Origin: an uncultured archaeon
GTDB taxonomy: Archaea; Asgardarchaeota; Thorarchaeia; Thorarchaeales; Thorarchaeaceae
DNA: 58,994 nt
Direction: 5' to 3'
NCBI GenBank assembly: GCA_964558645.1
Contig: CAZLEV010000017.1
Coordinates: 1 to 58,994, forward strand
The translations under genes and the position numbers were made by a program. Positions 642 to 45,938 of this stretch are shown here, piece after piece; position 1 is the stretch's first letter; every line of letters begins with the position of its first letter. Under the pieces are notes generated by a model that was not told where the DNA came from, did no database searches, and worked only from the letters and a program-made list of their open reading frames with translations.

Positions 642-1823
642 CTATCGCTGCATCTCGTCACGAAGCCGGGCGGCAGAGAACTCATCCACACGGTCTTTGA
701 CTTCTTCTCTCGCAGTCTGGTGCTTCTCAAGAAAATCCATGACCATTGGTGCAAGTATCTGTTTGCATTCGCCACAGAGAAGGTCACCGCCTGTGCATCT
801 CCTCTCGATGTCAGCCAGGTCTCGGTCATCTGGCATGAAGAGAAACTTGTAGTACTTGAACACAGGACAGATGTAGGGATTGGCTCCAAGTCTTCGCTGC
901 TCCTCTGCCGTGGCTCTTCCGCCGGTAAAGGCATTCATCACCTTTTTCTTCGCCATCTTAGGGGAATCAGTTGTGAAGATGGCCGACATCGGATCTGAAG
1001 CAGACATCTTGCCCCCTTCACCCAGACCCGGAACGAACTTGTTTTGAATAGACGCAGGCTTATAGTAACCTAAACCCTCTGCAACGTCACGGGTTACGCG
1101 CCAGTATGGGTCCTGGTCAATGGCACACGGGATGAGACACGGGGTCTTTTCTCCAACCAGCTCACTGTGTAGGAATGCAGGGACAGCCTGCATAGCAGGA
1201 TACCAGATCCCACCTATGTTCATACTATTGTCAAACCCATAGACGGCCCTTGCAGTGGAGAATGTCACTTTCTTAGCCACCCTTACGGCTATCTCGTACA
1301 AGAGATCGATGTGCTTGATATCGTTGATAATGTAGGTGTCTTCAGGTTCAAAACCAAGCGCAAGAAGGTCAAGTGTGTTCTCGTACGTATACTTGTATAC
1401 ATCCTCCAGCTCCAGCTCAGGGTTGAAAAGAAACTTCTCATCATCAGTCATCTGGAAATAGAGTCGGGTGTCGAATCGCTCTTGAAGCCACTTCGTGAAT
1501 CGCCATGGAATGAGGTGTCCAATGTGTGTGTGACCGCTCGGACCTCTTCCAGTGTAGAGGATGAACTTGTTCCCTTTCTGATACTCCTTCAACAACCAGT
1601 TCAGGTCCCGATGAGAATAGACCAGATCTCGCTCTAGAAGAATGTGCCGCTCCCCTGCAACCCTGTAGAGTTTCTCCTTCAATTCATCAGTTATCCGCTC
1701 AGTCCCGAACTTCTCAATGAGCCTATCGTAGTCAACCTTGCCGCGTACTTCCCATGGTGTGACTACCATTTCTTCGTCATCATTTGACACACGGCTAACC
1801 TCATTTCTGGTATTTTGGTTCAT
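642..1823 (-). CDS. trpS: Tryptophanyl-tRNA synthetase (archaeal/eukaryotic type)
   Basis: VTPWEV, YTGRGPS, HIGH, CAIDQDPYWR and KMSAS motifs. Confidence 0.97.
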   Translation of the reverse strand: MNQNTRNEVSRVSNDDEEMVVTPWEVRGKVDYDRLIEKFGTERITDELKEKLYRVAGERHILLERDLVYSHRDLNWLLKEYQKGNKFILYTGRGPSGHTHIGHLIPWRFTKWLQERFDTRLYFQMTDDEKFLFNPELELEDVYKYTYENTLDLLALGFEPEDTYIINDIKHIDLLYEIAVRVAKKVTFSTARAVYGFDNSMNIGGIWYPAMQAVPAFLHSELVGEKTPCLIPCAIDQDPYWRVTRDVAEGLGYYKPASIQNKFVPGLGEGGKMSASDPMSAIFTTDSPKMAKKKVMNAFTGGRATAEEQRRLGANPYICPVFKYYKFLFMPDDRDLADIERRCTGGDLLCGECKQILAPMVMDFLEKHQTAREEVKDRVDEFSAARLRDEMQR

Positions 1824-2023: not shown

Positions 2024-2683
2024 TCACCTGAATGAGGCTTTGCGTTGCATCTCTGGAATCCGGATGTTCGTCTTTCCCATGAACACATCTCGGAGTAGCT
2101 CAAAATGCTCATCCAGATCCTTCAACAACTTCTCAAGAGCCTGTGGTTCGATGTTCGGCTCCGCAGTCCAGATGGTGAGATAGTTGCTGACAACTCCAAC
2201 CTCTATTCCGCCCTCCTCAAGGTCTCTGAATATTGTGATCTTCACAAGGAACTCGGACTCGAACATATTAAGGATGTCATGAATGCTCATCACAATGAGA
2301 TCTAGAAAGCCAACCAGATCGTCGATTTCGGGTGATTCATTCGCGTTTCCACGGAGCGACTCCGTGAAGGTCTGGATTGTGGATGTCTTTTGTCTGAGAC
2401 TCTCGAACATCTTCATGAGTTTGGTGAACTGCTTGATTGATGACTCAAGAGCTGGAACAAGCTTATCGTACAGATTGACCAGAAGTTTTCCTCGTGCGTT
2501 CTCACGGATATTGTTGAATCCCGATAGTTTACCCAAGGGACCGTCTAGATGTTCAATCTGAACAAGTGTGTTTGTAACGGCCTGAATGCCCTTTACTGAG
2601 CTTCGCTGAATCTTAGTCCAGCGTTCAACGAAGGTGTCTATGCCCTCGCGGAGTTCATCCAGAACCTCAAGCTCTTGGGACAT
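2024..2683 (-). CDS. All-helical protein, candidate CINP/C1orf109 (AIRIM)-like
   Basis: 219 aa helical ORF; C-terminal ILNMFESEFLVKITIFRDL...NYLTIWTAEPNIE matches the recalled CINP/C1orf109 C-terminal pattern. Confidence 0.6.
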   Translation of the reverse strand: MSQELEVLDELREGIDTFVERWTKIQRSSVKGIQAVTNTLVQIEHLDGPLGKLSGFNNIRENARGKLLVNLYDKLVPALESSIKQFTKLMKMFESLRQKTSTIQTFTESLRGNANESPEIDDLVGFLDLIVMSIHDILNMFESEFLVKITIFRDLEEGGIEVGVVSNYLTIWTAEPNIEPQALEKLLKDLDEHFELLRDVFMGKTNIRIPEMQRKASFR

Positions 2684-2828: not shown

Positions 2829-3389
2829 TTAATCAGATTCCTGACTCGCTCGAAGGGAGTTATAGCCTTGTAGAAGGTCTGAACGGGTGATTATTCCTGA
2901 TAGCCTGCCACCAGTCACCACTAAGACCGCTTGGAAGGTATCAAAGAGCTGCAGAATCCAGGATATAGGTGTGGCCTCATCCACCTGTGGAGGAGCCATC
3001 GTTTCCATTACCGCTTGAACCGAGAGCTGGTTTAAATCGTGACTGAGATTTCTGATAATATCTCGCTCGGTGATCATCCCCACAAGATTGCGCCCCCGAA
3101 CCACAGGAAGCTGCGAGAACCCCTTCTGCAGCATTATCCTGACAACATCAGAGGCGCTATCACGAGCATCTACAGTGACTGGGTTCTGAGTCATCACCTC
3201 CGAACACCTGATGGAGTAACCAGCCAATACCTCATAGATTTTCGTCACAATAGAGAGCTTGGGATCAAGGTCGCCAGTTTCCACTCGGGCTACATATGAT
3301 TGTGACACACCGACCACTTCGGCCAGTTCTTTCTGTGTCATTCTTGCGCGTTTGCGAAGGCTTGCGATACTCTCTGTGCTAAGGGCCAT
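2829..3389 (-). CDS. XRE-type HTH transcription regulator with a C-terminal CBS pair (COG3620-like)
   Basis: LRKRARMTQKELAEVVGVSQSYVARVETG HTH; CBS motifs FSQLPVV..LVGMITERD and LSGIITRSDLL. Confidence 0.93.
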   Translation of the reverse strand: MALSTESIASLRKRARMTQKELAEVVGVSQSYVARVETGDLDPKLSIVTKIYEVLAGYSIRCSEVMTQNPVTVDARDSASDVVRIMLQKGFSQLPVVRGRNLVGMITERDIIRNLSHDLNQLSVQAVMETMAPPQVDEATPISWILQLFDTFQAVLVVTGGRLSGIITRSDLLQGYNSLRASQESD

Positions 3390-7698: not shown

Positions 7699-8259
7699 AT
7701 GGGCAAAGTAAAAGACCCAATTGCCAAGCGCATCAGAGGGAAGGCAGCCAAGGACATCAAAGGCGGCATCTTCGGTAAGATAACCCACTATATTCCCGGG
7801 TGGCACGGCTATCAAGAGAAAGAGGAGAGACGTGCGGCGGACAAGGTCCTTCGAGAGTTCCTCGCGGACCAGCTTCGTCTTGTGAAGCAGGATCTCGAGA
7901 AGCTTCAGATGATGGTTGTCGACTATGACCTCACAAAGACGTGGGAGACCTTCGACAGAATGCTTGCCCTGGCAGATAAGATCGAGTCGTCAATTCGCTA
8001 CGCAGATTACGGCTACGCATCTTGGGGTTCAAAGGAAAAGATCAATGAAAAAGAGCTCGACAGAATGTACGAGTTCGATGCAACAATCATTGAGGACATC
8101 GGTCGGATAAATGATGTTGCAGAGAATTTCCTTGACGACATGAACCAAGGCAAGTTCGATGATGCCTGGCAGTACACTTATCGTATGTGGCAGATCATGC
8201 AGCGCCTCGAAGAGAAATGGAACCAGCGTGAGGGCTACATGAAGGGTTATCAAGACTAG
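7699..8259 (+). CDS. Conserved helical hypothetical protein
   Basis: 186 aa ORF with IPGWHGYQEKEERRAADKVLREFLA and IRYADYGY motifs; clean terminator downstream. Confidence 0.8.
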   Translation: MGKVKDPIAKRIRGKAAKDIKGGIFGKITHYIPGWHGYQEKEERRAADKVLREFLADQLRLVKQDLEKLQMMVVDYDLTKTWETFDRMLALADKIESSIRYADYGYASWGSKEKINEKELDRMYEFDATIIEDIGRINDVAENFLDDMNQGKFDDAWQYTYRMWQIMQRLEEKWNQREGYMKGYQD

Positions 8260-8269
8260 ACCAAACTAG

Positions 8270-8307
8270 GTTGGGGACATGTCCCCAACATCTTCTCTTT
8301 TTCTTTC
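8270..8307 (+). terminator. Perfect 20-bp palindrome GTTGGGGACATGTCCCCAAC plus pyrimidine tract
   Basis: Seen directly, 10 nt after the 7699..8259 stop codon. Confidence 0.7.
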
Positions 8308-8353
8308 GGAGTGATAAGATTCACGCCCGGCAATAGACCGCAGGTCGTGGACG

Positions 8354-9046
8354 TCAACCCACTGTTGTTCCGCAGTACTGACAGGTCACCTTCTTACCTC
8401 TACTGAGGTTCTCTGCCATCTCAACGTCGTATTTCGAGCCACAGACTGGGCACAGCCAGACTCGCATATCACTTGGCTGCCCCTTGGTTATGTCAACGCT
8501 GACCTCCTCTGCGAGCTTCTCAACCCATTCAACGTATGTTGTGTGGTTGAGAGACGAAAAGATGTCACGGGCTTCACTCAAGAGTGGACGAATCTCGTCA
8601 AGACGTCCTAGACCACGATAGGCCTTAGCCAGACCGAAAGAATTCCACGCGATGTACCATTTACTCGCAACTCTTCGAGCCTCTTCGAGTCCCTCGTGAT
8701 AGTGTTTTGCTGCAGAGTCATAATCCATGTGATATGACGCAATCTCGCCAAGACCCCAGCTTGCTGCTGCACGGTACATGCCAAGGTTGTTTGCTCTCGC
8801 CAAATCCATGAGCTCGCCGTAGTACCCCTCTGCCTTCTTCAAGTCACGCAGATTGAGATAGCTATCGGCCATCACTCTCAGTGCCTCTGCAGCTCGAGCG
8901 ACCAGCCCCTCCTTCTTGAATCGCTTCCGAGCCTTCTCTGCATGTTCTCTGCTCTTCTTGTAGTCACCCGCTTGGAATAGAGTATAGGATTGTTGCAGGT
9001 GCTTCTCTCCATCTTGCGACATATGTGAAGACTGGTTTTCCGACAT
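8354..9046 (-). CDS. TPR-repeat protein with C-terminal zinc ribbon
   Basis: Repeated A..L..LG/A helical pattern; CPVCG...CQYCG; likely start at the second Met. Confidence 0.85.
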   Translation of the reverse strand: MSENQSSHMSQDGEKHLQQSYTLFQAGDYKKSREHAEKARKRFKKEGLVARAAEALRVMADSYLNLRDLKKAEGYYGELMDLARANNLGMYRAAASWGLGEIASYHMDYDSAAKHYHEGLEEARRVASKWYIAWNSFGLAKAYRGLGRLDEIRPLLSEARDIFSSLNHTTYVEWVEKLAEEVSVDITKGQPSDMRVWLCPVCGSKYDVEMAENLSRGKKVTCQYCGTTVG

Positions 9047-9094
9047 ATAAAGGGCGTGAATCTAGGGATAGTTGTGGGGTCTATTCTCGCCTCA

Positions 9095-9955
9095 TCAATG
9101 GCCAGAGCTGGGCAGAGTGGTCTTGCACTCTACGCTATCTGCACCGTAGTCAAAGTTCACTATGCGTCTATACTGTCTTAGGAGGTCCTCAAGATACTCC
9201 GCACAGCCGACAAGGACCACCCAACTATCATAGATATCCTGATTCTTTCGAGCACGAACATAGATGTCGAAATTATGCGGGGCAAGGGTAGGAACCCAAC
9301 CGGCTAAGTCAGCAAGGGTAAACAGATGTGCGCTTGCCCATGGATAAGCTCGCTCTTCGAACATCACATACGGCCAATAGGGTTCCCTATCTGGGTGATC
9401 CTCAATAAGCCCGGAACAACTCTCTTTCGTCCAGAATCCGAGCTCATTCAGACGGACAATATGAGGACGGATCAGCTCATCAACATAATCGATGAAGTCA
9501 CTGGTTTTTGGCCTTGAAACATCAAATGCCAACCACATTGTTCTGAACCATGCCTGAGCATTACTCCCCCACACAACTCCGGGCATGTGCCCCTGCTCAA
9601 TCCAGACCCTGTACGAGCTAAGCCGAAACCCCAGGTCACGGGCCACCGAACGAAGCGCATCCCATCTTGATTCCAGCAAGAGTCTCGACTCAGGGTCTTC
9701 TTCGGTGCCTGAAGCTGTATCGCAAATGAGTAGAATGTCACCGTTCGCATCCAGTGTTGCTCCCCACATCACAGCATGAGCAAGGGTGAAGGCATGTGCT
9801 TCACACCCAGGGTAGCTTGTATGGTCAAGTCGTAACCAACTCCACGACTCCTCCTCTCTGCTTAGGGATGCTTCTAGTACAACGAATCCCGGTTCTTCAA
9901 GAGCAGACACCAATGCGGTCTCGGAGTGACCCCTGCTATTACTCATCCCACACAA
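9095..9955 (-). CDS. Hypothetical protein with a TYW3/Taw3-like VD..I..LN...T..SCSG motif
   Basis: YVDELIRPHIVRLNELGFWTKESCSG. Confidence 0.6.
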   Translation of the reverse strand: MCGMSNSRGHSETALVSALEEPGFVVLEASLSREEESWSWLRLDHTSYPGCEAHAFTLAHAVMWGATLDANGDILLICDTASGTEEDPESRLLLESRWDALRSVARDLGFRLSSYRVWIEQGHMPGVVWGSNAQAWFRTMWLAFDVSRPKTSDFIDYVDELIRPHIVRLNELGFWTKESCSGLIEDHPDREPYWPYVMFEERAYPWASAHLFTLADLAGWVPTLAPHNFDIYVRARKNQDIYDSWVVLVGCAEYLEDLLRQYRRIVNFDYGADSVECKTTLPSSGH

Positions 9956-10078
9956 CTAATCGTCGTCAGTGCCATTAAGTCATTCGCAAAGAGTAGTCAG
10001 TTACGAGGCTGTGGATATGGAGCACGGTATGACACGGTGATAAATACCATAGTGCCGAGTAAGACATAGGCGAACCAT

Positions 10079-10450
10079 ATGGAACCACGAGATTTCCAAG
10101 GGGAACACGTCAAAGGACGAAACGATAGATTGGGTCATTTGGTCCTGCAAGAACTTCATCGCACAGCAAGAGTGCTCAAACACGATATCTACGATTCCAT
10201 TGATCAGGCTGTTCTCCTAGAGTGCGGCCAGAGACTGCAACGCGCTGTGGACGACCTCGCGCAAGATGTCTATGGCGGGAGAGTCTCGGTTGATTCGTTG
10301 GGAGTGCTTAAGGCATTCAAGACCGTGAACTGTCCAGACCTGACAAAGGACCTTGTTATGAGAGATAAGAAAAGGTCAGAACTCGCAAAAGAGCTCCGGC
10401 TGATGATCAATACCTTCGAGAATATAATCAGGCCAAGAACCATCAGCTGA
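10079..10450 (+). CDS. Hypothetical helical protein
   Basis: 123 aa ORF filling the gap upstream of the MBL gene, same strand. Confidence 0.6.
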   Translation: MEPRDFQGEHVKGRNDRLGHLVLQELHRTARVLKHDIYDSIDQAVLLECGQRLQRAVDDLAQDVYGGRVSVDSLGVLKAFKTVNCPDLTKDLVMRDKKRSELAKELRLMINTFENIIRPRTIS

Positions 10451-10508
10451 ATCATCAAATGTGGGGCAATATTGATTACCTACCCGATGCCTTGTTCATT
10501 CGGTTGCC

Positions 10509-11264
10509 ATGAAGGTCACAATGCTAGGGACGGGAACGTCTTTTCCAGATCCAGACCGGGTGCAGTCTGGCGTCATGGTCGAAGCGGCAGATACCGTGCT
10601 TCTGTTTGACATCGGGTCCGGTGTCTTGCATCGTCTTGTTCAGACTGGAATCGAGATCACTAAGATTGAACACCTCTTCATAAGTCACTTTCACATCGAC
10701 CACTGCTCTGACTTTCTCACTCTTTGTCAGAGCCTTTGGCTGAGCGGCTACGAGAAGACACTGCATGTATACGCACCTTCGTATGTTAAGCGATGGTGGA
10801 AGGGTATTTTCGAGTATTCCTTCGAGTATATGACCGACAGGATAGACATCGAGGTCATCGAACTCGAGCCAGAACACGTGGTGGAGATTGGCGGAACAAC
10901 AGTGACGAGTTGCCAAACAGCCCATGGTGACCGTGACTCGCGGGCCTTCAAGGTGACGCATGAAAACAAGACGGTTGTCTACACGTCAGACACGGGCCCC
11001 CATGAGAGAATCGTGCGATTTGCCCAAGGTGCAGACATTCTCATCCATGAATGCAACTGGCTCGACGGCGAGCACGACAAGAATGTCCACACGACTCCAT
11101 CGGAGCTGAACGAGATTGTGAGGAGCACTGGAGCCAAGACGGTCATCATCGACCACGTGTCTCCTGATGTTGTGGAGAACGCCGAACACGTGCTCAGAGT
11201 AATCAGAACAGATACTGACGCCGAGGTCATACTCGGAGAGGATCTTATGGTTCGCCAGCTGTGA
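10509..11264 (+). CDS. MBL-fold metallo-hydrolase, RNase Z/AtsA-like
   Basis: LGTG, LFDIGSG, SHFHIDH, YTSDTG, LIHEC, HTTP motifs. Confidence 0.92.
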   Translation: MKVTMLGTGTSFPDPDRVQSGVMVEAADTVLLFDIGSGVLHRLVQTGIEITKIEHLFISHFHIDHCSDFLTLCQSLWLSGYEKTLHVYAPSYVKRWWKGIFEYSFEYMTDRIDIEVIELEPEHVVEIGGTTVTSCQTAHGDRDSRAFKVTHENKTVVYTSDTGPHERIVRFAQGADILIHECNWLDGEHDKNVHTTPSELNEIVRSTGAKTVIIDHVSPDVVENAEHVLRVIRTDTDAEVILGEDLMVRQL

Positions 11265-11443
11265 CCAGTCGGATGAGTATGTCATATGAGGATTTATTAG
11301 GTTATATGATAACGGTATGTCAGCGAGTGCGGGAATTACCTCGCGATAGCCCTGAAAAGCAATCATACTCCCCCTCCCTCAGAAATCAGGATTTCCTGAT
11401 TCTGGTGCACTACACTCTCTCTCTCCCGCACCCGCCTACTTCT

Positions 11444-11896
11444 TTACACCTTCTTGTCAGGAATGTACATCAGTCTGATGTTCCTCGACCCGAAGACGGA
11501 CATGAAGACAACTAGGGGAGCCATCAGGGTGAGTCCCTGAATCTCCGGCAAGATGAGTGGGATGCCATTCTGTACAATCCAGTATCCATTAACAGCTAAG
11601 ATGATGAAATAGGCCAGCCCATGAAGGGCGTTGAAGTATGCTGCACCCCTCGCAAACCTGTAGGAAAGGTGCTTGTGCACATAATGGGTTTCTTGAAAGA
11701 CCACCATCAGGAAGAACAGTGTCACTATAGTCAGTACAGTGTATCCGAAGGCGTAGAACAAGAGATAGCTGCCAATGATCCCTGATGCCACATAGAAGTA
11801 GGTCCTCATGGGGTTGAAGGGGCGGCGTTTCTCCTTCTGCTCATCTTCTTGAACTCCCGGTTCGGTCTTCTGATCTTGCTGATTGCCTTCTTCCAC
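11444..11896 (-). CDS. Multi-pass membrane hypothetical protein
   Basis: About 4 hydrophobic segments after a charged N-terminus. Confidence 0.7.
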   Translation of the reverse strand: MEEGNQQDQKTEPGVQEDEQKEKRRPFNPMRTYFYVASGIIGSYLLFYAFGYTVLTIVTLFFLMVVFQETHYVHKHLSYRFARGAAYFNALHGLAYFIILAVNGYWIVQNGIPLILPEIQGLTLMAPLVVFMSVFGSRNIRLMYIPDKKV

Positions 11897-12005
11897 TGAG
11901 GCACACCCATGCTGCTACCGGTCTGTATCCTAATAACTTCGGTCCTAGGAGCAACAGGGAGTCTCTGAGGCCCCCGTTGTGGGGAACCCTTCTTTTTCAT
12001 GTTCT

Positions 12006-12308
12006 TCAGTTCTCCACGTACCGGTCTCCCTTAGGAATCCGTTGTCGTATACGGTGACTCCTCACGGCAAGATAGGCGAAGTACAGGAAAGGTAGTTCTC
12101 CAAGCAGAATGAATGGATTCTCGGCGATATCCCCAAGGAAGAACAGGAAAAGGGCAAGACCCGTTATGACCATTAGGAGTTGCCATTTGAACTCACCTGC
12201 TATCTTACACTCTTGTGAGCAATAGAGTCTACCCGCACTGGCCACCCAGTCTATGCTCTCATCCGTCCCGCACCAGTCACACCGCGCGTGATACCCCGTT
12301 ATTTCCAC
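12006..12308 (-). CDS. Small zinc-finger (CxxC...YCSxxC) membrane protein
   Basis: CDWCG...LYCSQEC followed by two TM helices. Confidence 0.7.
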   Translation of the reverse strand: MEITGYHARCDWCGTDESIDWVASAGRLYCSQECKIAGEFKWQLLMVITGLALFLFFLGDIAENPFILLGELPFLYFAYLAVRSHRIRQRIPKGDRYVEN

Positions 12309-12457
12309 CTCTATCCTTTGACCGACACTCAGAGATAAGTCTTTCAGAGAATTAGATAGAACAGAACAGGTAGCCCCGAGAGCATCAGGTCAATGTTTTT
12401 AACATAAGAGGCCGGAATAGGACACAGAACCATAATACAATGGATACGGTGTGATAA

Positions 12458-13339
12458 ATGGCCGATGCAATTGAATGGACTAATGCTGGGGCTGATGAGA
12501 TAGTCTGGCGTTATCCTGATAATCGAATTAAATGGGGTTCCCAACTCGTCGTGATGGAGAACCAAGCCGCAATTTTCTACAGAGACGGAAAGGCTTTGGA
12601 CACTTTTATTGCTGGTCGTCACAAGCTGACCACAAGCAGCATGCCCAGCCTGGTGGGCTGGCTGCAGAAGAAGGTGAAAGGTGATGTATTCCAAGCGACC
12701 TGCATCTTCATCTCAAGAGGACAATTCCAGGGGAAGTTTGGCGGCCGAGGACAAACAAGCGATCTGGCGCCTCTGATGTTCCACGGAAACTTCTGGTTCA
12801 GAGTGAAGGAGCCAAAGATATTCGTCACTGAAGTAGTCGGTAATCAGAATGCATTCTCAACTAAGAAGATCAACGACTACCTACGCTCATTCATGAACGA
12901 GCGCGTGATTGACGAGTTTGCTCACTACGACCTCCAGGCAGTCTTCACTCAGCTAGATGAGACCTCAATGAAGGTCAAGACCAAGGTCAGAATGAACTTC
13001 GAGCGAATAGGACTTGAGCTTGTTGACCTAAAGTTTGAGGGAATCGACACAACTGAGAAGTACCGTGAGCGGCTCTTCTGGCTCCGCACTGGTGGTGTCA
13101 GTGGTGGTCAGGTTATGGGTTCCGAGACCATGAGGTCTGCAGCTGAATCTCTGGGCAAGAGTCCCGGAGCAGGATTCGGTGCAGGCATGGGATTCATGGG
13201 AGCTATGGGCCAGCAGATGCAGGGCGGCCAACAGCAGGGTGGCGGATCTGCTCCAGCAGGATCCAAGTTCTGTCCTAACTGCGGCACGAAACTTGAGGGC
13301 GCGAAGTTCTGCCCGAACTGCGGAACAAAAGTCGGATAG
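12458..13339 (+). CDS. SPFH/band-7 domain protein with double zinc ribbon (YdjI-like)
   Basis: IVWRYP..IKWGSQLVVMENQAAIF..DGK, GAGFGAGMG linker, two FCPNCGTK repeats. Confidence 0.92.
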   Translation: MADAIEWTNAGADEIVWRYPDNRIKWGSQLVVMENQAAIFYRDGKALDTFIAGRHKLTTSSMPSLVGWLQKKVKGDVFQATCIFISRGQFQGKFGGRGQTSDLAPLMFHGNFWFRVKEPKIFVTEVVGNQNAFSTKKINDYLRSFMNERVIDEFAHYDLQAVFTQLDETSMKVKTKVRMNFERIGLELVDLKFEGIDTTEKYRERLFWLRTGGVSGGQVMGSETMRSAAESLGKSPGAGFGAGMGFMGAMGQQMQGGQQQGGGSAPAGSKFCPNCGTKLEGAKFCPNCGTKVG

Positions 13340-13500: not shown

Positions 13501-15918
13501 GTGCTTCATCTCAATCACGTGAGAATGAGGTTGGTCGGGCACAGCACAGACTTCATAGAGTTGATTCGTTACCGTTCCATGGACGCACGACACTCTATAT
13601 CCAAGACTTTCCAACTCGCAATGAACTGTATTACCCTCGTAGTGCAAGGGAAGATTAGTGGCAAGACTCAGTATAACCTGAGACACTTGCAGAAAGGATA
13701 CGACAACCCTACGTTGGCAGACACACTTCTGTACGATATCTCAGGACCGGATGATATCGCACTGGACATAATACGACCTGAAGTGCCCCTGTCCACGGAT
13801 AAGCGTGAAGCGATTATCGAGTGCCTCTGGTCAGATATCCAGCAGGGGGAGAACCGTAGCACACTCCATGAGATGCTCCAGCGAGCAAGAGATGCGCATT
13901 TCCACTTGACAAGCACGCTGCTCGAACATAGAGGTCATCCTGAGAGGTCGAAGGCAAACAGACTGTTGGAGCTTCTTGGAAAGACCGCCACTAGACCTGC
14001 CTGCGGGTATGATCTAGCCGCAATCAGGGAGGGGACTTATTGGCACGACTGCATCTTAGATATCCTGCACGAACAGCTCATCGTGCCCCTCGCCACTGCA
14101 ACCTCTAACACTCAACTCAACGATGACCGGTCACTTCATTCTCTGCGGAAGAAGACCGGTTCATTCTATACGCCGCCGCGTGTGGCCAGATACATATCGG
14201 GCCAGACTCTCACCCGCTGGCTTGAACACAGAGCAGGGCCACCGACTGCTGACGGGGGATTTCATGCTCTAATTCCAAAGAGAAGAACTCGCATCTTGGA
14301 GTTCCTGAAGAGCGTTAGGATCTTGGACCCTGCCGTCGGAGCGGGGATCTTCTTGATTCAAGCAGGTGAATGGCTGCTCAAACTTAGAAGAGCATTTGGC
14401 GATAATCTCACTCTATCGGAGATGAAACGGGAGATTGTCGCCAAGAACTTGTACGGGGTCGACATTCTGCCAGATTCAGTAGTTGCATCACGCCGTCGTC
14501 TGGCCCTCTGGTGTTCATCAGGCGAAACCTCTCTTCAAGAAGGGCAAGTCCAGAGTATTGTCAATCGCATCAGGAAAGGGAATAGCTTACTAGGCATGAC
14601 CCTCCATTCGAAGAATGCCCCCTCATGTCTTGGAGATACTGACATCTTCTTCCATTGGCCGCAGAACTTACCTCATGTTTTTCGAAGCGGCGGCTTCGAC
14701 ATTGTCATTGGCAATCCTCCGTATGGAAATATTCTCTCTGACTATGAAAAGCGAGTCATTGATGCGACTGCCCGGTGGAGTGTGAGCGGAGGAAGGTCGG
14801 GAACATGGAATGCCGCACCTCTCTTCCTTGTAAGAGGAAGAGAACTGCTAAATGGGAATGGCCACATGGGAATGCTTCTTCCCAACAGCATCCTCCGAGT
14901 CGGCCAGTTCCAGAAGACAAGAGAGTTCATGCTGAAAGAGCTGGACATCTTAGAGATTCAAGATGAAGCCAGCCCAATCGACGATATCACGTTGGAGCTC
15001 TTCAGCCTGATTGCTGCCGTTCCGAAGTCCCGTCGAAGTCGCGATGTTCTCATCAGGTCAAATAGAAAGGGGATTCGGGAACGGAATGTGGTTCGCAGAA
15101 GCTCGTTGGAACAATCGAAGATCTTCGTCCTGTATCACGATGATATTCTGGAGTTAGCTCGCAAGAGAGGCAAGGCAGGCCTTCTGAGCGCCTCAAGGGG
15201 TAGAGACATCCCTTCGAGTCATGTTCGAAAAAAATCTGGAGGATCATTCTCTGTACCCTATGCAACAAGTGGCCGCAGCGTCCGACGGTACAGGATTGAT
15301 TGGGACTATCTCAGATATGTGGATGACTGGTTCAAAGAAGATGCTGCTCTTATGGAATCGTACGAGAACTCATTCCTGATAGCCACGAAGAACCTACCCT
15401 TTCCAAGAACCCTTCTCAAGCCAAGAGGGCTGATTCACGGAGGAGGTATCGTCAAGATTGACATCCATGATTCCGGAGTTGCTCCATCCACCGTGGGGAT
15501 GATCCTGAACTCAACTATGGCGAGGTATCTCTGTATCAGGTACCTCACTAATTATTCGGAGCTCACTACATGCCTCAATACTGGTATCATGGATGAGCTG
15601 CCGATAGTCCTCCCCGAGTGTCAGGAGGTCTACGGGTGGATATTCAACGAACTCCAAAGGCGACATTGCCATGCTCGCACACACGATAATCTCACCATGC
15701 AACTTGATGCTCTAGCGGATGCTCTGGTCTATGAGGCATACCTCTTGGATGATTCCTGCTTGGACCAGACGGCCCATGAGGTTCTGAAGAGGAACTGCTT
15801 ACATCATAATGGGCTGAGGACTACCAAGGAGATTGTGGAAGGCACATCAAAGCTCGTCTCAGAAATTATGAGTTCGGAGGAAGTCAAGAGGGTCGAGAAC
15901 TCCCCAAGGATGAACTGA
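13501..15918 (+). CDS. N6-adenine DNA methyltransferase, Eco57I/TaqI-like (gamma class) with C-terminal target-recognition region
   Basis: RKKTGSFYTP, ILDPAVGAGIFL, LYGVDI, GGFDIVIGNPPY; the true start is probably downstream of 13501. Confidence 0.88.
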   Translation: MLHLNHVRMRLVGHSTDFIELIRYRSMDARHSISKTFQLAMNCITLVVQGKISGKTQYNLRHLQKGYDNPTLADTLLYDISGPDDIALDIIRPEVPLSTDKREAIIECLWSDIQQGENRSTLHEMLQRARDAHFHLTSTLLEHRGHPERSKANRLLELLGKTATRPACGYDLAAIREGTYWHDCILDILHEQLIVPLATATSNTQLNDDRSLHSLRKKTGSFYTPPRVARYISGQTLTRWLEHRAGPPTADGGFHALIPKRRTRILEFLKSVRILDPAVGAGIFLIQAGEWLLKLRRAFGDNLTLSEMKREIVAKNLYGVDILPDSVVASRRRLALWCSSGETSLQEGQVQSIVNRIRKGNSLLGMTLHSKNAPSCLGDTDIFFHWPQNLPHVFRSGGFDIVIGNPPYGNILSDYEKRVIDATARWSVSGGRSGTWNAAPLFLVRGRELLNGNGHMGMLLPNSILRVGQFQKTREFMLKELDILEIQDEASPIDDITLELFSLIAAVPKSRRSRDVLIRSNRKGIRERNVVRRSSLEQSKIFVLYHDDILELARKRGKAGLLSASRGRDIPSSHVRKKSGGSFSVPYATSGRSVRRYRIDWDYLRYVDDWFKEDAALMESYENSFLIATKNLPFPRTLLKPRGLIHGGGIVKIDIHDSGVAPSTVGMILNSTMARYLCIRYLTNYSELTTCLNTGIMDELPIVLPECQEVYGWIFNELQRRHCHARTHDNLTMQLDALADALVYEAYLLDDSCLDQTAHEVLKRNCLHHNGLRTTKEIVEGTSKLVSEIMSSEEVKRVENSPRMN

Positions 15919-26986: not shown

Positions 26987-27147
26987 ATCACCATCTCAGT
27001 GCAGCAGGTAGAGGAGCCGACAAAAAAGATTATGGTAGTGACACAAATCTTAGTACATTGTCGGTGTTTGCGCTAGCTTTAAAAACGCCGTGCATTTTCA
27101 GCCCACATCGACCACGACAGGTGACTCGGTATCAGGAAGGCGTCAGG

Positions 27148-28725
27148 ATGAATGGCAAGAGAATCACGGTAATACTACTACTGACAGCAATATTTGTTGG
27201 GGCACTACAATTGCCTCCACTCGCCGGGAACGTCACAGCTAGTAACAGCGGTTTCAACGAAAGAAATCGCGGCTTGTTCGAAGCGTACTTCGAGTCGGAT
27301 AACATCACAATCACCCTGATTACTCCTGCAAATCAGAGTACCTTGGTCGGAACGGTGAACATCACCCTGGATGTTGTGTCAGACTACGACCCCCTGAATC
27401 TAACACTCTTTGTGGATGATGAGATCTACCCCGACCTGAACCGCACAGAGATTTCTGTTGGTCTGCAGAATGTAACAATAGACACGCTGACTCTTCCAGA
27501 GGGGTATCTGAATTTCACTTTCCTCTTTGAGAATGCGTCATCAGGTGTAGTCGATCGGCAGAGCTATCCTCTGCTCTTCGAGGTGGACAACCACGGTTAT
27601 CCAAGCGTAGAGATACTTGCACCGAGCGAGGAAGAAACATTCACAGGCCCAGATGAACTGTATCTAAACATCTCATCTTCCTACGAAGAAGTCTACCTGA
27701 ACATAACAGTCAACGGAGTTCCTACTGAGGAATGGAACGGTTCGCAGCTTGTCCCTGTAGGCCCAGCCAATTACACCATCAATGGCAGCAGATATGAGAA
27801 CGGGAATAACCTAGTCGAGGTCATCGTTGTGACCGAGGAAGGGCTCTCAGACCAAGCAGAGGCGGTTGTTCGGTTCCTAGATCATGTCCGATTCTCAATA
27901 GTGGGAATAAGCAACTATGGAACAGTGTCAGGAGAACAGGAGTTTGCAATCCGCGTGTTCACACCCTACGATTCTGTGAATCTGACAGCTTTCGTTGAAG
28001 GGGATATCGCGGATGACGTCAAGAACATAACCGTGCCTCAGGGCCGTAGTGACTTTACCATGAATACTACGGGATATGCAGAAGGAGAGCACGAATTCCT
28101 CTTCGTGGCTTATGATGGATTCGGGCATTCGTGGTCTCAGAAACTCATATTCATAGTCGACAACCACGGCGAGCCGAGTGTGTCATTCATTGCGCCCACC
28201 CGAGATATCGTTGTAGGGCTGGCAGAATTCACATTGGATATCGAAACCACGTATAGCACAGTTTCGCTCTCTGTCTATGTTGATGGAGAGGCTGTTGAGA
28301 GTTTGACCAATCTGACCGCTCCCGCAGGATCCTATACTTTCTTCCTTGACACCACACCATATAGCAAGTGGCAACATGAGGTGAAGGTCGTGGTGACCAC
28401 TGTGGAGGGACTAAGTGATGAGGCTACTTCGCTCCTTGGTTTTGCCAATTTCAAGATTGAAGAGATTCTCAGTGCAATTGTATTGATAGGAATCGCTCTG
28501 ACTATTCCGCTCATGCGACTGAAGAAAGGAGAGCCTGTCAAGACCACATTCATTGTGGATGCGATATTCATCCTTGTCTTCTTCGGTGTCTTCTTCGCAT
28601 TGGGTGTGTCCTCACTACCTGTCATGATATGGCACTTCAATCTTGCAAGCGTATGGGCCTTTGGCACAACACTGATTGCAACCAACTGGCTTATCCCTCT
28701 GTTCACCATGGAAACCAGTCAGTAG
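27148..28725 (+). CDS. Cell-surface glycoprotein with tandem Ig-like beta-sandwich repeats and C-terminal TM helices
   Basis: Signal peptide, duplicated VDNHG.PSV..AP units, many N-x-S/T sequons, about 3 C-terminal TM segments. Confidence 0.82.
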   Translation: MNGKRITVILLLTAIFVGALQLPPLAGNVTASNSGFNERNRGLFEAYFESDNITITLITPANQSTLVGTVNITLDVVSDYDPLNLTLFVDDEIYPDLNRTEISVGLQNVTIDTLTLPEGYLNFTFLFENASSGVVDRQSYPLLFEVDNHGYPSVEILAPSEEETFTGPDELYLNISSSYEEVYLNITVNGVPTEEWNGSQLVPVGPANYTINGSRYENGNNLVEVIVVTEEGLSDQAEAVVRFLDHVRFSIVGISNYGTVSGEQEFAIRVFTPYDSVNLTAFVEGDIADDVKNITVPQGRSDFTMNTTGYAEGEHEFLFVAYDGFGHSWSQKLIFIVDNHGEPSVSFIAPTRDIVVGLAEFTLDIETTYSTVSLSVYVDGEAVESLTNLTAPAGSYTFFLDTTPYSKWQHEVKVVVTTVEGLSDEATSLLGFANFKIEEILSAIVLIGIALTIPLMRLKKGEPVKTTFIVDAIFILVFFGVFFALGVSSLPVMIWHFNLASVWAFGTTLIATNWLIPLFTMETSQ

Positions 28726-36285: not shown

Positions 36286-37491
36286 GTGAAACTCGATATT
36301 ACATCACGTGCTGCAGACTTGAGATATGCTATTCGCGACATCGTCGTTGCGGCAAAGGAGTACGAGAAGAAAAGAGGGAAAACGCCCCTATACCTGAATA
36401 TCGGAGACCCGCTCAAGTACGACTGGGAGACCCCTAGATTCATGATAGACGCACTTCACGAGGCCTCATCAAAAGGGAGGAATGGATACGCTCCTTCTGA
36501 GGGCGAGGATGAGCTCCGTAATGCAGCAGCTGAAAAGGAGAAGCGTGTTAACGGCACTGATATCGACCCTGAACGGATGATCATAACTGCAGGGGTATCT
36601 GAGGCGATTCAGTTTCTGACCGGCGCGTTAATCTCGGAGGAAGCCGAATTTCTCGTACCAGGACCCGCATATCCACCGTACATCTCATACATCAGTTATT
36701 TCGGTGGGAAGCCCGTAACGTATAGAACCATAGAGGAAGAAGGCTGGATTCCTGATGTGGATGACCTGAGAGGAAAGATAAACGAGAGAACCAAGGGAAT
36801 TCTGGTCATAAACCCAAACAACCCGACAGGAGCAGTCTATGATAGAAACACCCTCAAACAGATTGCAGACATCGCAGGTGAATACGAACTCCCACTTGTA
36901 TCTGACGAGATCTATGACCAGCTCACTTTTGATATGAAACAGACGCCAATGGCGGGGGTTGTGGGGGACGTGCCCATGATAGGATTCAACGGTATAAGCA
37001 AAGTCTACCTAGCACCCGGTTGGAGAATTGGATACGTCTACTTCCAAGATGAGAACGGCGAGCTCGAACCCCTAAGAGATGCCATGGTACGCCAAGCCAG
37101 GATCAGGATCTGCACTAACACCCCCACCCAGCTTGCAGCTGCTGCTGCCCTCCGAAGCGATGGAGGCCACATCAATGGAATGCTAGAGCGTCTCAGAAAG
37201 CGACGACAGATAATTTGGGAACGTTTGAACGACATTGATGGGGTCTCAGCATCTCTCCCTCAGGCAGCGTTCTACATAATGGCAAAGGTGGAGCTGGACG
37301 GAATCTGGAGAAATGACCATGACTTCGTTCTCGACTTGCTCAATGATACGGGAGTGGTATTCGTTCCCGGTTCCGGGTTCTGTGCCGACTACGGCCGTAA
37401 TCATTTCAGAAGCGTATTCTTGCCGCCACCAGATATGATAGCTGAGGCAATGGACCGATTAGAGAGATTCATGGACAAGAAGCGAATCTAG
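36286..37491 (+). CDS. Aminotransferase class I/II (alanine aminotransferase-like)
   Basis: YAIRD, LNIGDP, INPNNPTG, SDEIY, GISKVYLAPGWRIG, VPGSGF. Confidence 0.95.
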   Translation: MKLDITSRAADLRYAIRDIVVAAKEYEKKRGKTPLYLNIGDPLKYDWETPRFMIDALHEASSKGRNGYAPSEGEDELRNAAAEKEKRVNGTDIDPERMIITAGVSEAIQFLTGALISEEAEFLVPGPAYPPYISYISYFGGKPVTYRTIEEEGWIPDVDDLRGKINERTKGILVINPNNPTGAVYDRNTLKQIADIAGEYELPLVSDEIYDQLTFDMKQTPMAGVVGDVPMIGFNGISKVYLAPGWRIGYVYFQDENGELEPLRDAMVRQARIRICTNTPTQLAAAAALRSDGGHINGMLERLRKRRQIIWERLNDIDGVSASLPQAAFYIMAKVELDGIWRNDHDFVLDLLNDTGVVFVPGSGFCADYGRNHFRSVFLPPPDMIAEAMDRLERFMDKKRI

Positions 37492-39263
37492 GAAAGCTCT
37501 TGTCTCTTACTCTCGATAACCTCACGAATCTTGCTTCGGATTGAATCGATCAATTCCTTGGCAAACTTCAGACCAGCCGGCTCGCGCAAGGAAGCAGCGG
37601 TCAGGTAGGGGTCATTGATAATCCTCTCAATCCCTTCACGTAGTACGGCGACTTCAGAGCTGACACGAGTCACTGTTGTTCGGATCTCGGTTCTTCTCGC
37701 AGCTTCAGAGGGGTCATCAGTTGTGGCGGCACTTGGAAGCCTTGAATGTAGCTGCTCAAGCTGCTCTGCAATATCTGAGGCCTTCTTATGCAGTACCTTG
37801 GTTCTTTCAACCAGCGAAGAACGGGTTTCAAGGTCAGTCTTCTGTTCATCTTTGACGCTATCGAGCTCGGTCTCGAAATCTCTTGCCAGTGTCTTCAGCC
37901 GTTCCATCAGGAGATCCTCAATTGGACCCAGGTGCTCTCTAGCGAATTTCTTCTTCTCTTCCAATCGAGCGGTTTCAATGCTCTTGATCAGGTCTTCATC
38001 TCCAATGACGGAGTCCAGGGTATTGACAAGCTCGTTCACAACTGCAATCCTCGACTTAGCCGACTGCAATTCCTGATTCTCAATGTTGGTTCTTGCTCTG
38101 CTGAGAGCTTGTGAAACGCCTTCTGCTATTCTGTCGAGAGGTTCGGCTTGGAACGAAGAAACATCAATAGAGGACTTCAACAGACTGAGCCGTGCCTCCG
38201 TGACATCGGCGTCATGGAGTAGTTTTTCCGTCATTTTGAAATCGCGTAGAATGAAGGTCGCGGGACCGGCTTGGAATGAGTATTCTGAGTTCAACATGTC
38301 TCTATAGGAACCACGCAGAACTACCTCGTATTCTCGTTCTCCACTCATGTCTTGTGACGCCTTTGCAATGAGTTCGAGATTCAGACTGTCATCGGGTCCA
38401 AGTTTCGACAGCTTGGTCGTCTTATCGCCCCTGACAAGAACTAGCTCTTCGTCTATAAACCACTCAAGAGATAGTCCGAGCGCATCACCATCACCATTGT
38501 TTGTGATGGTGCCCCGTATAGGAAACTCTTCTGTGAAAGTCATGTCCACAGGAAGATCCAGTTGCCCGACGAGTTTCGGCACCTTAAGTTTGCCTCGAAG
38601 CATCTCTCGTGCCATGTCAAGACCCTTGTCTACATACTTCGTGAAATCCTGAGCATTTGCATTTGTCAGAGCTGACTTGAGCTCGGTGACAGTAGCATTC
38701 TCGGCACTTGAGAAAGAGGAGATATCAACAGACTCGATGGCAGATTGTAACTGCTGAGGTATTTGTGTGATTCTGACAACGCCCGGATAGGTCAGCTTCG
38801 AGGCATTCTCAGCACAGAACGCTCTGGCCTTGTTGAATCCTTCAGCATCTTTTCCAATCATTAAATACATCATGCTGGCGGCAGTGGCAAGAGCTGCACC
38901 CTTACGAGTCTCTGCATCTTCTCCCCACATGAGATGCTCATCTGATGCAGCCAGAAGGTCTTCTGCAGCCCTCTCATAGGCATCCATTGCCTTTTGACTC
39001 TCTGCAAGTGTTAAGTAGACATCACCGGCAGCACACATATTGCGTGCAGCGCTCTTATAGCTCTTGGAGGATCGGAATTCTCCAGCGGCCTTCTTGTAGG
39101 TCTCAGCAGCTTGCGTATAGATCTTCTGTGCCTCTTCGATTTCTCCACGTTGTTCAGAAAGCTCAGCTGCGATCTCGTATTTCTTGCCGGCCTCCGTAAA
39201 GGATTGTCTCAAGGACTCCTTCGTCGCCTCTTCAATGATACGTCGAACGTCTTCATCAGACAT
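37488..39263 (-). CDS. SNAP-like TPR solenoid, Ig-like (CARDB-type) domain and long coiled coil; candidate arcadin-4-like
   Basis: EAGKKYEIAAE/QAAETYKKAA/KAMDAYERAAE repeats; ITNNGDGDA...RGSYRD beta domain; heptad-rich C-terminus. Confidence 0.75.
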   Translation of the reverse strand: MSDEDVRRIIEEATKESLRQSFTEAGKKYEIAAELSEQRGEIEEAQKIYTQAAETYKKAAGEFRSSKSYKSAARNMCAAGDVYLTLAESQKAMDAYERAAEDLLAASDEHLMWGEDAETRKGAALATAASMMYLMIGKDAEGFNKARAFCAENASKLTYPGVVRITQIPQQLQSAIESVDISSFSSAENATVTELKSALTNANAQDFTKYVDKGLDMAREMLRGKLKVPKLVGQLDLPVDMTFTEEFPIRGTITNNGDGDALGLSLEWFIDEELVLVRGDKTTKLSKLGPDDSLNLELIAKASQDMSGEREYEVVLRGSYRDMLNSEYSFQAGPATFILRDFKMTEKLLHDADVTEARLSLLKSSIDVSSFQAEPLDRIAEGVSQALSRARTNIENQELQSAKSRIAVVNELVNTLDSVIGDEDLIKSIETARLEEKKKFAREHLGPIEDLLMERLKTLARDFETELDSVKDEQKTDLETRSSLVERTKVLHKKASDIAEQLEQLHSRLPSAATTDDPSEAARRTEIRTTVTRVSSEVAVLREGIERIINDPYLTAASLREPAGLKFAKELIDSIRSKIREVIESKRQELS

Positions 39264-43751: not shown

Positions 43752-45938
43752 CTAGATGTAACCAGGGATACTCTTAGATCCTTCAGGAGCCCTGCGATAG
43801 ACCCTGTCTTTCTGGTCCTGATATCGCTTGACATCATCCTGAGAGATGCTTGGTCGAACCTCATCCATGGCCTGCCTGAAGTGTTTCATCTCAACTGGTT
43901 TGACAGTCCAGTCATCTCTGACTGCCGCCATGGCCGCTTCTCTGCACAGTCCCTCAATATCAGCACCCGAATAGCCCTCCGTCATTTGACTGAGCTCTTC
44001 GAGGTCAACATCGTCGGCAAGAGGCATGTCACGGGTATGCACCTTGAATATCTCAACCCGAGCCTCTTTGTCAGGAGGAGGCACGAAGACCACATTATCG
44101 AATCGTCCGGGTCTTAGAACTGCAGGGTCAAGTATGTCAGCCCGATTAGTGGCACCGATAACAAGAACATTCTGAAGAGCCTGCATTCCATCCAGCTCTG
44201 CAAGGAACTGGTTGACTATTCGCTTGCTTACACCAGTTTCATCTCGTTGGCTTCTCGAAGCCATCACAGCATCGATTTCGTCGAAGAATAGGACACAGGG
44301 GGCAGTCTGTCTTGCCTTCTTGAATATCTCACGCACTGCCTTTTCAGATTCTCCAACGTATTTGTTGAAGATTTCAGGGCCGCGAATCGAGATGAAGTTG
44401 GCCTCGCTCTCCGTCGCGACAGCCTTGGCCAATAGGGTCTTGCCAGTACCTGGTGGACCGAACAGCAGAACGCCCTTTGGTGCTCGAATCCCCATATCCT
44501 TGAAGACATCCGGATGATTCAGCGGGGCTTCAACAGCCTCTCGGAGTTGCATCTTCACTTTCTCCAGGCCGCCAACATCACTCCAGCGCACGTTTGGTTT
44601 CTCAACAAGCACTTCTCTCAGTGCTGATGGCGAAACCTCTGCCAGAGCAGCATCAAAGTCACTCTGAGTCACATAGAGGTCATTCAAGATATCCGCGGGG
44701 ATATCACCGGTTTCAGGATCAACATGCGGGAGCGCCCGTCTCAGCGCCTGCATTGCAGCCTCTCTTGCAAGAGATGCGAGGTCTGCACCAACAAAACCAT
44801 GAGTGGTCGCAGCAAGACGTTCGAGATCAAGGTCTTCCTCCAGCGGCATAGAACGAGTATGGATCTGAAGAATCTCAAGTCGGCCCTGCTTGTCCGGAAC
44901 ACCGATTACAATCTCCCGGTCGAATCGCCCAGGTCGCCTGAGTGCTTCATCAACATCATCAACTCTGTTGGTAGCACCTATGACTATGACTTGCCCCCGT
45001 CCAGCTAAGCCGTCCATCAGCGATAGGAGCTGAGCAACTACTCTTCGCTCAACCTCTCCTGATACTTCGGCTCGCTTTGGAGCAATGCTATCCAATTCGT
45101 CGATGAAGATGATGCTGGGCGCGTTCTTCTCTGCCTCTTCAAAGACCTCTCTCAGTTTCCCTTCTGACTCACCATAGAACTTGGACATGATCTCTGGGCC
45201 ATTTATCAGCCGAAACGTAGCACCAGACTCGTTGGCGACAGCCTTCGCAATCAGTGTCTTGCCAGTTCCCGGTGGACCGTGAAGCAATACACCCTTAGGA
45301 GGTGTGATACCCAGCCTCCTGAATAGCTCGGGCGACTTCATGGGTAGCTCGACCATCTCACGAATCTTCGTGAGTTCCTTACCAAGGCCACCAATGTCTT
45401 CGTATGTCACTTGAGGAACTGTGACATCTTCGGGCTTGGCGGGCTTTGTCAATACCTCTAACTCAGTGCCTGCCACGACCCGAACATGCTTTCCGGGAGC
45501 GGCCGCCGTGACCGTGAATTGCAGTCCCTGACCTATTGAGGAAATGATCACAATATCTCCACGTGTCACAGGCCTATTCAGAATCTGCTGCTTCACATAG
45601 TTCGCAAAACCAGACTCGAATCTTACAGGTTGACTGGGAGCGAGTACAACTCGGCTCGCTTCAGGGATAGTCACAGCTGATACTTCAACCATCTCACCTA
45701 GTTTGACACCGGCATTGGCTCTTATCAAGCCGTCCATCCGTATCATGTCAAGTACTTCATCTTCCTTCAGACTAGGCCAGCATATCGCAACTGTTTCTTT
45801 TGATCCTTTCAGGAGTACATAATCACCAGAGCGCACTCCAAGTTTGTTTCGTACTTGGGAATTCAGTCGAACTATACCTCGACCTTGGTCTTTCGGCATC
45901 GCAGCTGCGGCTTTCAGTCTTACACTGTCGTCTGCCAT
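43752..45938 (-). CDS. cdc48: CDC48/VCP/VAT-family AAA+ ATPase
   Basis: N-domain DQGRGIVRL; two AAA modules ([35 protein letters not shown]); HbYX-like GYI end. Confidence 0.97.

Follow-up and report, generated by a model that had tools for sequence, protein, structure and literature searches.

The window analysed here, a 58,994-nucleotide stretch forming contig CAZLEV010000017.1, carries at positions 2024..2683 of the minus strand a single open frame of 219 amino acids plus stop, which is an Asgard CINP-like (CINP/C1orf109-family) gene by sequence, profile searches and AlphaFold model, and single-copy by genome search. The preliminary description of this DNA, from which the strand was absent, had quoted a set of motifs for this ORF, all of which are present in the 219-residue translation, namely ERWTKI (residues 20-25), LGKLSGFNNIRE..RGKL (50-67), SPEIDD (117-122), MFESEFLVK (140-148) and NYLTIWTAEPNIE (167-179). 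The human motifs that it cited occur as such in the CINP and C1orf109 chains of the PDB, and its plant-type motif matches the sequences P0171/P0176. The loop between helix 1 and helix 2 (residues 50-63; 2495..2536, minus strand) is recognised by alignment to C1orf109, by the mutagenesis in PMC11055677 and by conservation. The motif M-[FY]-E-x-E-x-x-x-K (residues 140-148; 2240..2266, minus strand) is common to CINP, C1orf109 and the Asgard members, and a C-terminal motif of CINP type, Y-L-x-x-W-x-x-E-P (residues 167-178; 2150..2185, minus strand), is identified by alignment to CINP and conservation. The closest relatives of the ORF are 67-99% identical and mostly named Thorarchaeota. A likeness once seen between SPEIDD and the SPSVAD of C1orf109 is rejected as probably coincidental, being four residues out of register with PSVAD in an hhalign alignment of low confidence; conservation of SPEIDD stops at Thorarchaeia in the 30-sequence Asgard alignment.

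The neighbours serve as context only. Upstream lies an HTH-CBS regulator (2829..3389, minus strand), which neighbourhood comparison reveals as a frequent neighbour in Thorarchaeia and their sister family and not in other Asgard lineages, and downstream lies a class I (Trp/Tyr-type) tRNA synthetase (642..1823, minus strand), present beside the CINP-like gene at 8 of 40 loci. In the loci examined, the neighbourhoods consist of lineage-specific housekeeping genes, and no CDC48 or ribosome-assembly gene lies near the CINP-like gene at any of them. Elsewhere in the window, a cluster at 7699-13339 comprises an SPFH/Band 7 protein with a terminal zinc ribbon (12458-13339), a TPR protein with a terminal zinc ribbon (8354-9046) and a helical protein (7699-8259). 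An Eco57I-type restriction-modification methylase is found at 13501-15918 (plus strand), and three long ORFs are without a Pfam match at E 1e-5 (27058-28725, plus strand, 555 aa; 37488-39263, minus strand, 591 aa; 9095-9955, minus strand, 286 aa).

Homology to CINP and C1orf109

The gene is almost certainly the Thorarchaeia member of an Asgard CINP-like family, truly homologous to CINP and C1orf109/AIRIM of eukaryotes and sharing their helical bundle. In phmmer, the ORF alone finds human CINP as its top PDB match (E 0.0026), and its first Pfam match is PF15011 (E 3.3e-4; 21 bits against a gathering cut-off of 27 bits), a model that gives E 0.1 or lower with 29 of 30 Asgard members, reaching 1.7e-14 in the best case, and yields nothing above its cut-off in 14 control genomes. 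A profile made from an alignment of 30 Asgard sequences, and of Asgard sequences only, retrieves human CINP with an alignment that spans about 170 residues (E 8.5e-10); the next non-family match is at E 0.008 and human C1orf109 at E 0.07. Searched against 1.84 billion proteins, this profile gives 170 matches, including named fungi, a heterolobosean and a choanoflagellate; among the presumed eukaryotic matches, identity by name is confirmed for 5. The eukaryotic matches fall into two groups, one anchored by human C1orf109 (E 3.8e-24) and the other by human CINP (E 3.7e-28), and this anchoring is independent of selection by the Asgard profile. The comparison with CINP and C1orf109 profiles that the preliminary description had proposed bears out its claim of homology: hhalign aligns the Asgard profile with the C1orf109-like and the CINP-like group at 99.6% each (E 6e-24 and 7e-25, respectively). 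In the reverse search, each eukaryotic-group profile picks out this ORF alone among the 22,276 six-frame ORFs of the genome, with scores of 64.7 and 65.9 bits. Eukaryotic members reach 36-76 bits on the Asgard profile, compared with at most 14.8 bits for reversed and 10.2 bits for shuffled sequences, their scores being inflated because the same profile selected them.

The AlphaFold model of the ORF consists of helices only (pLDDT 88.6, pTM 0.82). The proposed structural comparison with the 55LCC subunits likewise came out in favour of the family, as CINP chains rank top at Z 15.4-16.2, the best giving VIA Z 16.2 with an rmsd of 3.2 over 183 residues and 16% identity; for C1orf109, Z is 13.4, with an rmsd of 3.6 over 186 residues. 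Because these values stand only modestly above those of de novo bundles, one of which, at Z 13.9, is placed between CINP and C1orf109, the fold backs the family assignment but the sequence carries it. Foldseek with the ORF model returned no match at E < 0.001, its E being only about 3e-3 with a de novo tetramer tied first, and a structure search of the Atlas with the model gave unrelated bundles only. These structural results, together with the score of the lone ORF under the PF15011 cut-off, are the points in favour of a generic helical bundle whose likeness to CINP and C1orf109 is convergent, which we regard as scarcely conceivable. Convergence is refuted by the Asgard-profile search, by hhalign to both groups and by the reverse search with its controls: significance is reached at the sequence level, the Trp, Glu and Pro motifs are shared in register, the ORF is the reciprocal best match in its genome, and reversed and shuffled controls score far lower. 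Among CINP-like proteins, those of one Asgard family (f16; L028-L030) carry about 38 extra residues, apparently helical, inserted between long helices 2 and 3.

Distribution and ancestry of the Asgard gene

The supposition that this is a eukaryotic signature protein not yet described fails, because Koestlbacher et al. (bioRxiv 10.1101/2024.07.03.601958; Nat Microbiol 2026, PMC12962969) published CINP homologues ("CINPL") from five Asgard clades, reporting none in other prokaryotes and placing eukaryotes beside Hodarchaeales. As a eukaryotic signature protein, the gene is therefore already published, and we infer that the locus belongs to the sequence set of these authors, with which it shares full-length CINP homology in an Asgard genome. 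The main text of PMC12962969 names CINP alone, C1orf109 occurring solely in a reference title, and gives no partner, oligomer, function or mechanism for Asgard CINPL. Beyond that text, the present analysis shows one copy of the gene, at equal distance from the CINP and C1orf109 groups.

The distribution check that had been suggested was carried out in Asgard archaea and revealed a patchy pattern, with the Asgard profile positive in 129 of 400 genomes and one copy in nearly all of them. The gene occurs in 79/85 genomes of Thorarchaeia, in 21/22 of a Hodarchaeales family and in 17/19 of Hermodarchaeia, with five smaller families bringing the total to eight, and members are also found in "Asgardarchaeia" records, beside Hodarchaeales and Hermodarchaeia. 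In the searched genomes of about 20 other Asgard families, none was found, apart from one marginal match (largest family, 135 genomes). This patchiness, together with the 6.3% contamination estimated for the source genome (92.8% complete), could point to transfer from a eukaryote or to a contaminated assembly. We consider this very improbable and effectively refuted, since 79 of the 85 genomes of the Thorarchaeia family have the gene, among archaeal genes, and the Asgard sequences lie on one side of a 97/96 branch, sorted by host lineage. A divergent CINP-like gene of the Asgard branch (P0149) lies on a 2610-bp contig (Logan SRR11241200) after six short co-directional ORFs without Pfam matches; the contig resembles viral or mobile-element DNA, and neither the Thorarchaeia alignment nor P0149 has a match in IMG/VR.

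A tree of 63 sequences, built without an outgroup, with groups chosen from a first tree and long rows left out, gives an unrooted three-way split into Asgard (97/96), CINP (100/99) and C1orf109 (96/94). Here too, in agreement with PMC12962969, eukaryotes attach beside the Hodarchaeales group, between it and the remaining Asgard lineages. Because the tree has three groups, the gene is single-copy and the scores with both eukaryotic groups are equal, the simplest reading is a duplication after the Asgard/eukaryote split; thus, the gene probably descends from a single gene whose later duplication, in the eukaryotic stem, gave rise to CINP and C1orf109. The single ancestral form put forward in the preliminary description is favoured by these three observations; it is not proven, since AU tests reject neither CINP with Hodarchaeales (p 0.088) nor C1orf109 with Hodarchaeales (p 0.093). 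Alternatively, the gene would be an orthologue of CINP specifically, with C1orf109 older or separately derived and the archaeal protein a monomer or joined to an unrelated partner. This is improbable, despite the far better score of human CINP than of human C1orf109 on the Asgard profile (E 8.5e-10 versus 0.07), the higher structural Z of CINP, the W-x-x-E-P motif of CINP type at the C-terminus, and an unrooted tree in which CINP with Hodarchaeales is retained at p 0.088. At group level, the scores are equal both in hhalign and in the reverse search, and the C1orf109 group drifts from the C-terminal motif, which may account for the score gap between the two human proteins. Additionally, nearly all of the 129 positive genomes hold one copy by this profile, and the loop motif is of C1orf109 type and is missing from human CINP.

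Interface residues and possible self-association

In 55LCC, C1orf109 and CINP make a T-shaped dimer in which the loop between helix 1 and helix 2 of C1orf109 is packed against CINP; mutating L63, L69 or L73 of C1orf109 breaks CINP binding, and L162, S181 and S184 of CINP are needed for complex formation (PMC11055677). Both sets of residues can be placed on the archaeal chain. In particular, L63/F66/L69/L73 of C1orf109 align with L53/F56/I59/A63 of the ORF, and L162/S181/S184 of CINP align with V147/N167/T170. Across 149 Asgard sequences, L53 and F56 are near-invariant, positions 59 and 147 are hydrophobic throughout and A63 is small; the positions equivalent to S181 and S184 vary. Compared with human CINP (55LCC/SPATA5; PDB 8cih, 9gwj_B, 8rhn, 9lgo), the archaeal protein shares the fold, the N-terminal Trp, the motifs M-Y-x-x-E-x-x-x-K and Y-L-x-x-W-x-x-x-P and the counterparts of L162, S181 and S184, but it adds the C1orf109-type loop and has no conserved acidic counterpart, in the Asgard alignment, of CINP E147, which contacts R84 of SPATA5. 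With human C1orf109/AIRIM and plant OPNR (PF15011), it shares the fold, the CINP-binding loop L-x-x-F-x-x-L and PF15011 as top Pfam match; unlike them, it has a CINP-type C-terminus and a segment out of register with PSVAD, and human C1orf109 scores weakly on the Asgard profile.

One chain thus combines the two sides of the interface that in humans joins CINP to C1orf109, which suggests, as read from the alignments, that the protein may form a homo-oligomer. Because one chain has both surfaces, self-association would run from loop to side, the C1orf109-type loop of one chain packing on the CINP-type receiving surface of another, and could produce a T-shaped dimer or a small ring, possibly like the modelled plant trimer; in the published model, the OPNR-OAP1-OAP2 trio of plants makes a ring around a pore (PMC12332008). 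For a hetero-oligomer, two or more family paralogues would be expected, and the genome, 92.8% complete, holds one copy. On the other hand, folding alone may explain why the interface residues are conserved. Human CINP and human C1orf109 are each monomeric alone (PMC11055677). A complex prediction with two copies of the ORF (149-row alignment) and the N-domain of a CDC48 encoded on contig C6 of the same genome (21 rows) scored 0.15 against a mark of 0.32, a result that, being without controls, gives no verdict.

Candidate CDC48 partners and substrates

The human and plant members of the family work on the N-domains of CDC48-family ATPases (PMC12019325, PMC11055677, PMC12332008). The source genome has two CDC48 genes, and Asgard paralogues fall into about four groups. 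The CDC48/VAT-family gene noted earlier in the window is real (43752-45938, minus strand, 728 aa) and unlinked to the CINP-like gene, yet it is the weaker of two candidates, because its clade is missing from most lineages with the CINP-like gene: strongly supported relatives occur in Thorarchaeia only, with one further family at weaker support. The clade of the second candidate (contig C6:37771-39990), found by genome search and assessed by clade distribution, is represented in 7 of the 8 families that carry the CINP-like gene, the eighth having partial copies that were not taken in. The AFG2A-to-p97 bit ratio is 0.95 for the C6 CDC48 and 0.84 for the window CDC48, and two other clades have 0.89 and 0.90; coming from single sequences, this is a weak hint. 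Judging from these sequences, the C6 CDC48 appears the likelier partner. All four paralogues tested score best on VAT, then on p97, ahead of AFG2, and no CDC48 paralogue co-distributes with the CINP-like gene, the C6 clade being present also in lineages without it. As for gene number, the searched genomes have 2 CDC48 genes in Thorarchaeia and 4 in Hodarchaeales.

Human CINP docks on residues 452-474 of GTPBP4 and on the RLP24 tail (PMC12019325). The source genome has a single eL24 of 65 aa, and its Nog1 open frame of 370 aa is shorter than the 452-474 site, a shortness consistent with PMC8481954. Therefore, relative to the 55LCC and OPNR complexes, the tailed Rlp24-type substrate and the Nog1/GTPBP4 docking region have no counterpart here, and release of Rlp24 is unlikely because the tails gripped by the human complex are missing from both proteins. 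As far as predicted gene lengths tell, this genome cannot have the ribosome step in the form known from eukaryotes, and the substrate is probably something other than an Rlp24-like ribosomal placeholder.

Taken together, we propose that a chain carrying both surfaces self-associates and that the resulting oligomer may cap the N-domains of a CDC48/VAT hexamer, more likely that of contig C6, which would then receive substrates funnelled to its pore without ubiquitin, an Rlp24-like substrate being improbable. We give this reading a probability of roughly 0.45. A seriously possible, if doubtful, alternative is that the protein is a true homologue that works without CDC48 in archaea, for example as a helical scaffold or an oligomer binding nucleic acid or the ribosome, and that the role of lid on AFG2 is eukaryotic. 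It would fit the lack of linkage to and co-distribution with any CDC48 paralogue, the lack of an evident AFG2 orthologue among the paralogues tested, the lack of a tailed eL24 and a long Nog1 in the genome, and the contact of human CINP itself with rRNA ES27A (PMC12019325); furthermore, many Asgard families have 2-4 CDC48 genes, yet most of their searched genomes gave no match to the CINP-like gene. Against it, all characterised members, human and plant, work on CDC48-family N-domains, and an ATPase can outlast its adaptors, as in yeast, which has Drg1 without the other members (PMC11055677). Because adaptors can vanish while the ATPase remains, a patchy distribution is expected with or without a CDC48 partner.

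If a single chain both self-associates and binds a CDC48 N-domain, as we propose, it would offer a two-protein model for the origin of the SPATA5-SPATA5L1-C1orf109-CINP machine. This human machine is asymmetric and is mutated in neurodevelopmental disease. The job of the adaptor before Rlp24 would in that case also become visible, which bears on the debate over a ribosome or replisome role. A bolder extension, which we hold to be rather unlikely, is that the Asgard protein is the lid from before the duplication, that it homo-oligomerises via both interface halves and that it caps one specific archaeal CDC48 paralogue, so that a 55LCC-like adaptor-unfoldase would predate both eukaryotes and Rlp24, and the 4:2:2:2 complex would have arisen by duplication from a symmetric ancestor. 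One Asgard CDC48 paralogue (L082) is 934 aa long, with a long C-terminal extension. Most Asgard eL24 proteins have about 60-70 aa, and one family without the CINP-like gene has an 87-aa form (L120). In Hermodarchaeia, which carry the gene, eL24 proteins of 138, 140 and 86 aa (L118, L129 and L125) have long Lys-rich C-terminal tails, reminiscent of those of eukaryotic eL24/Rlp24.
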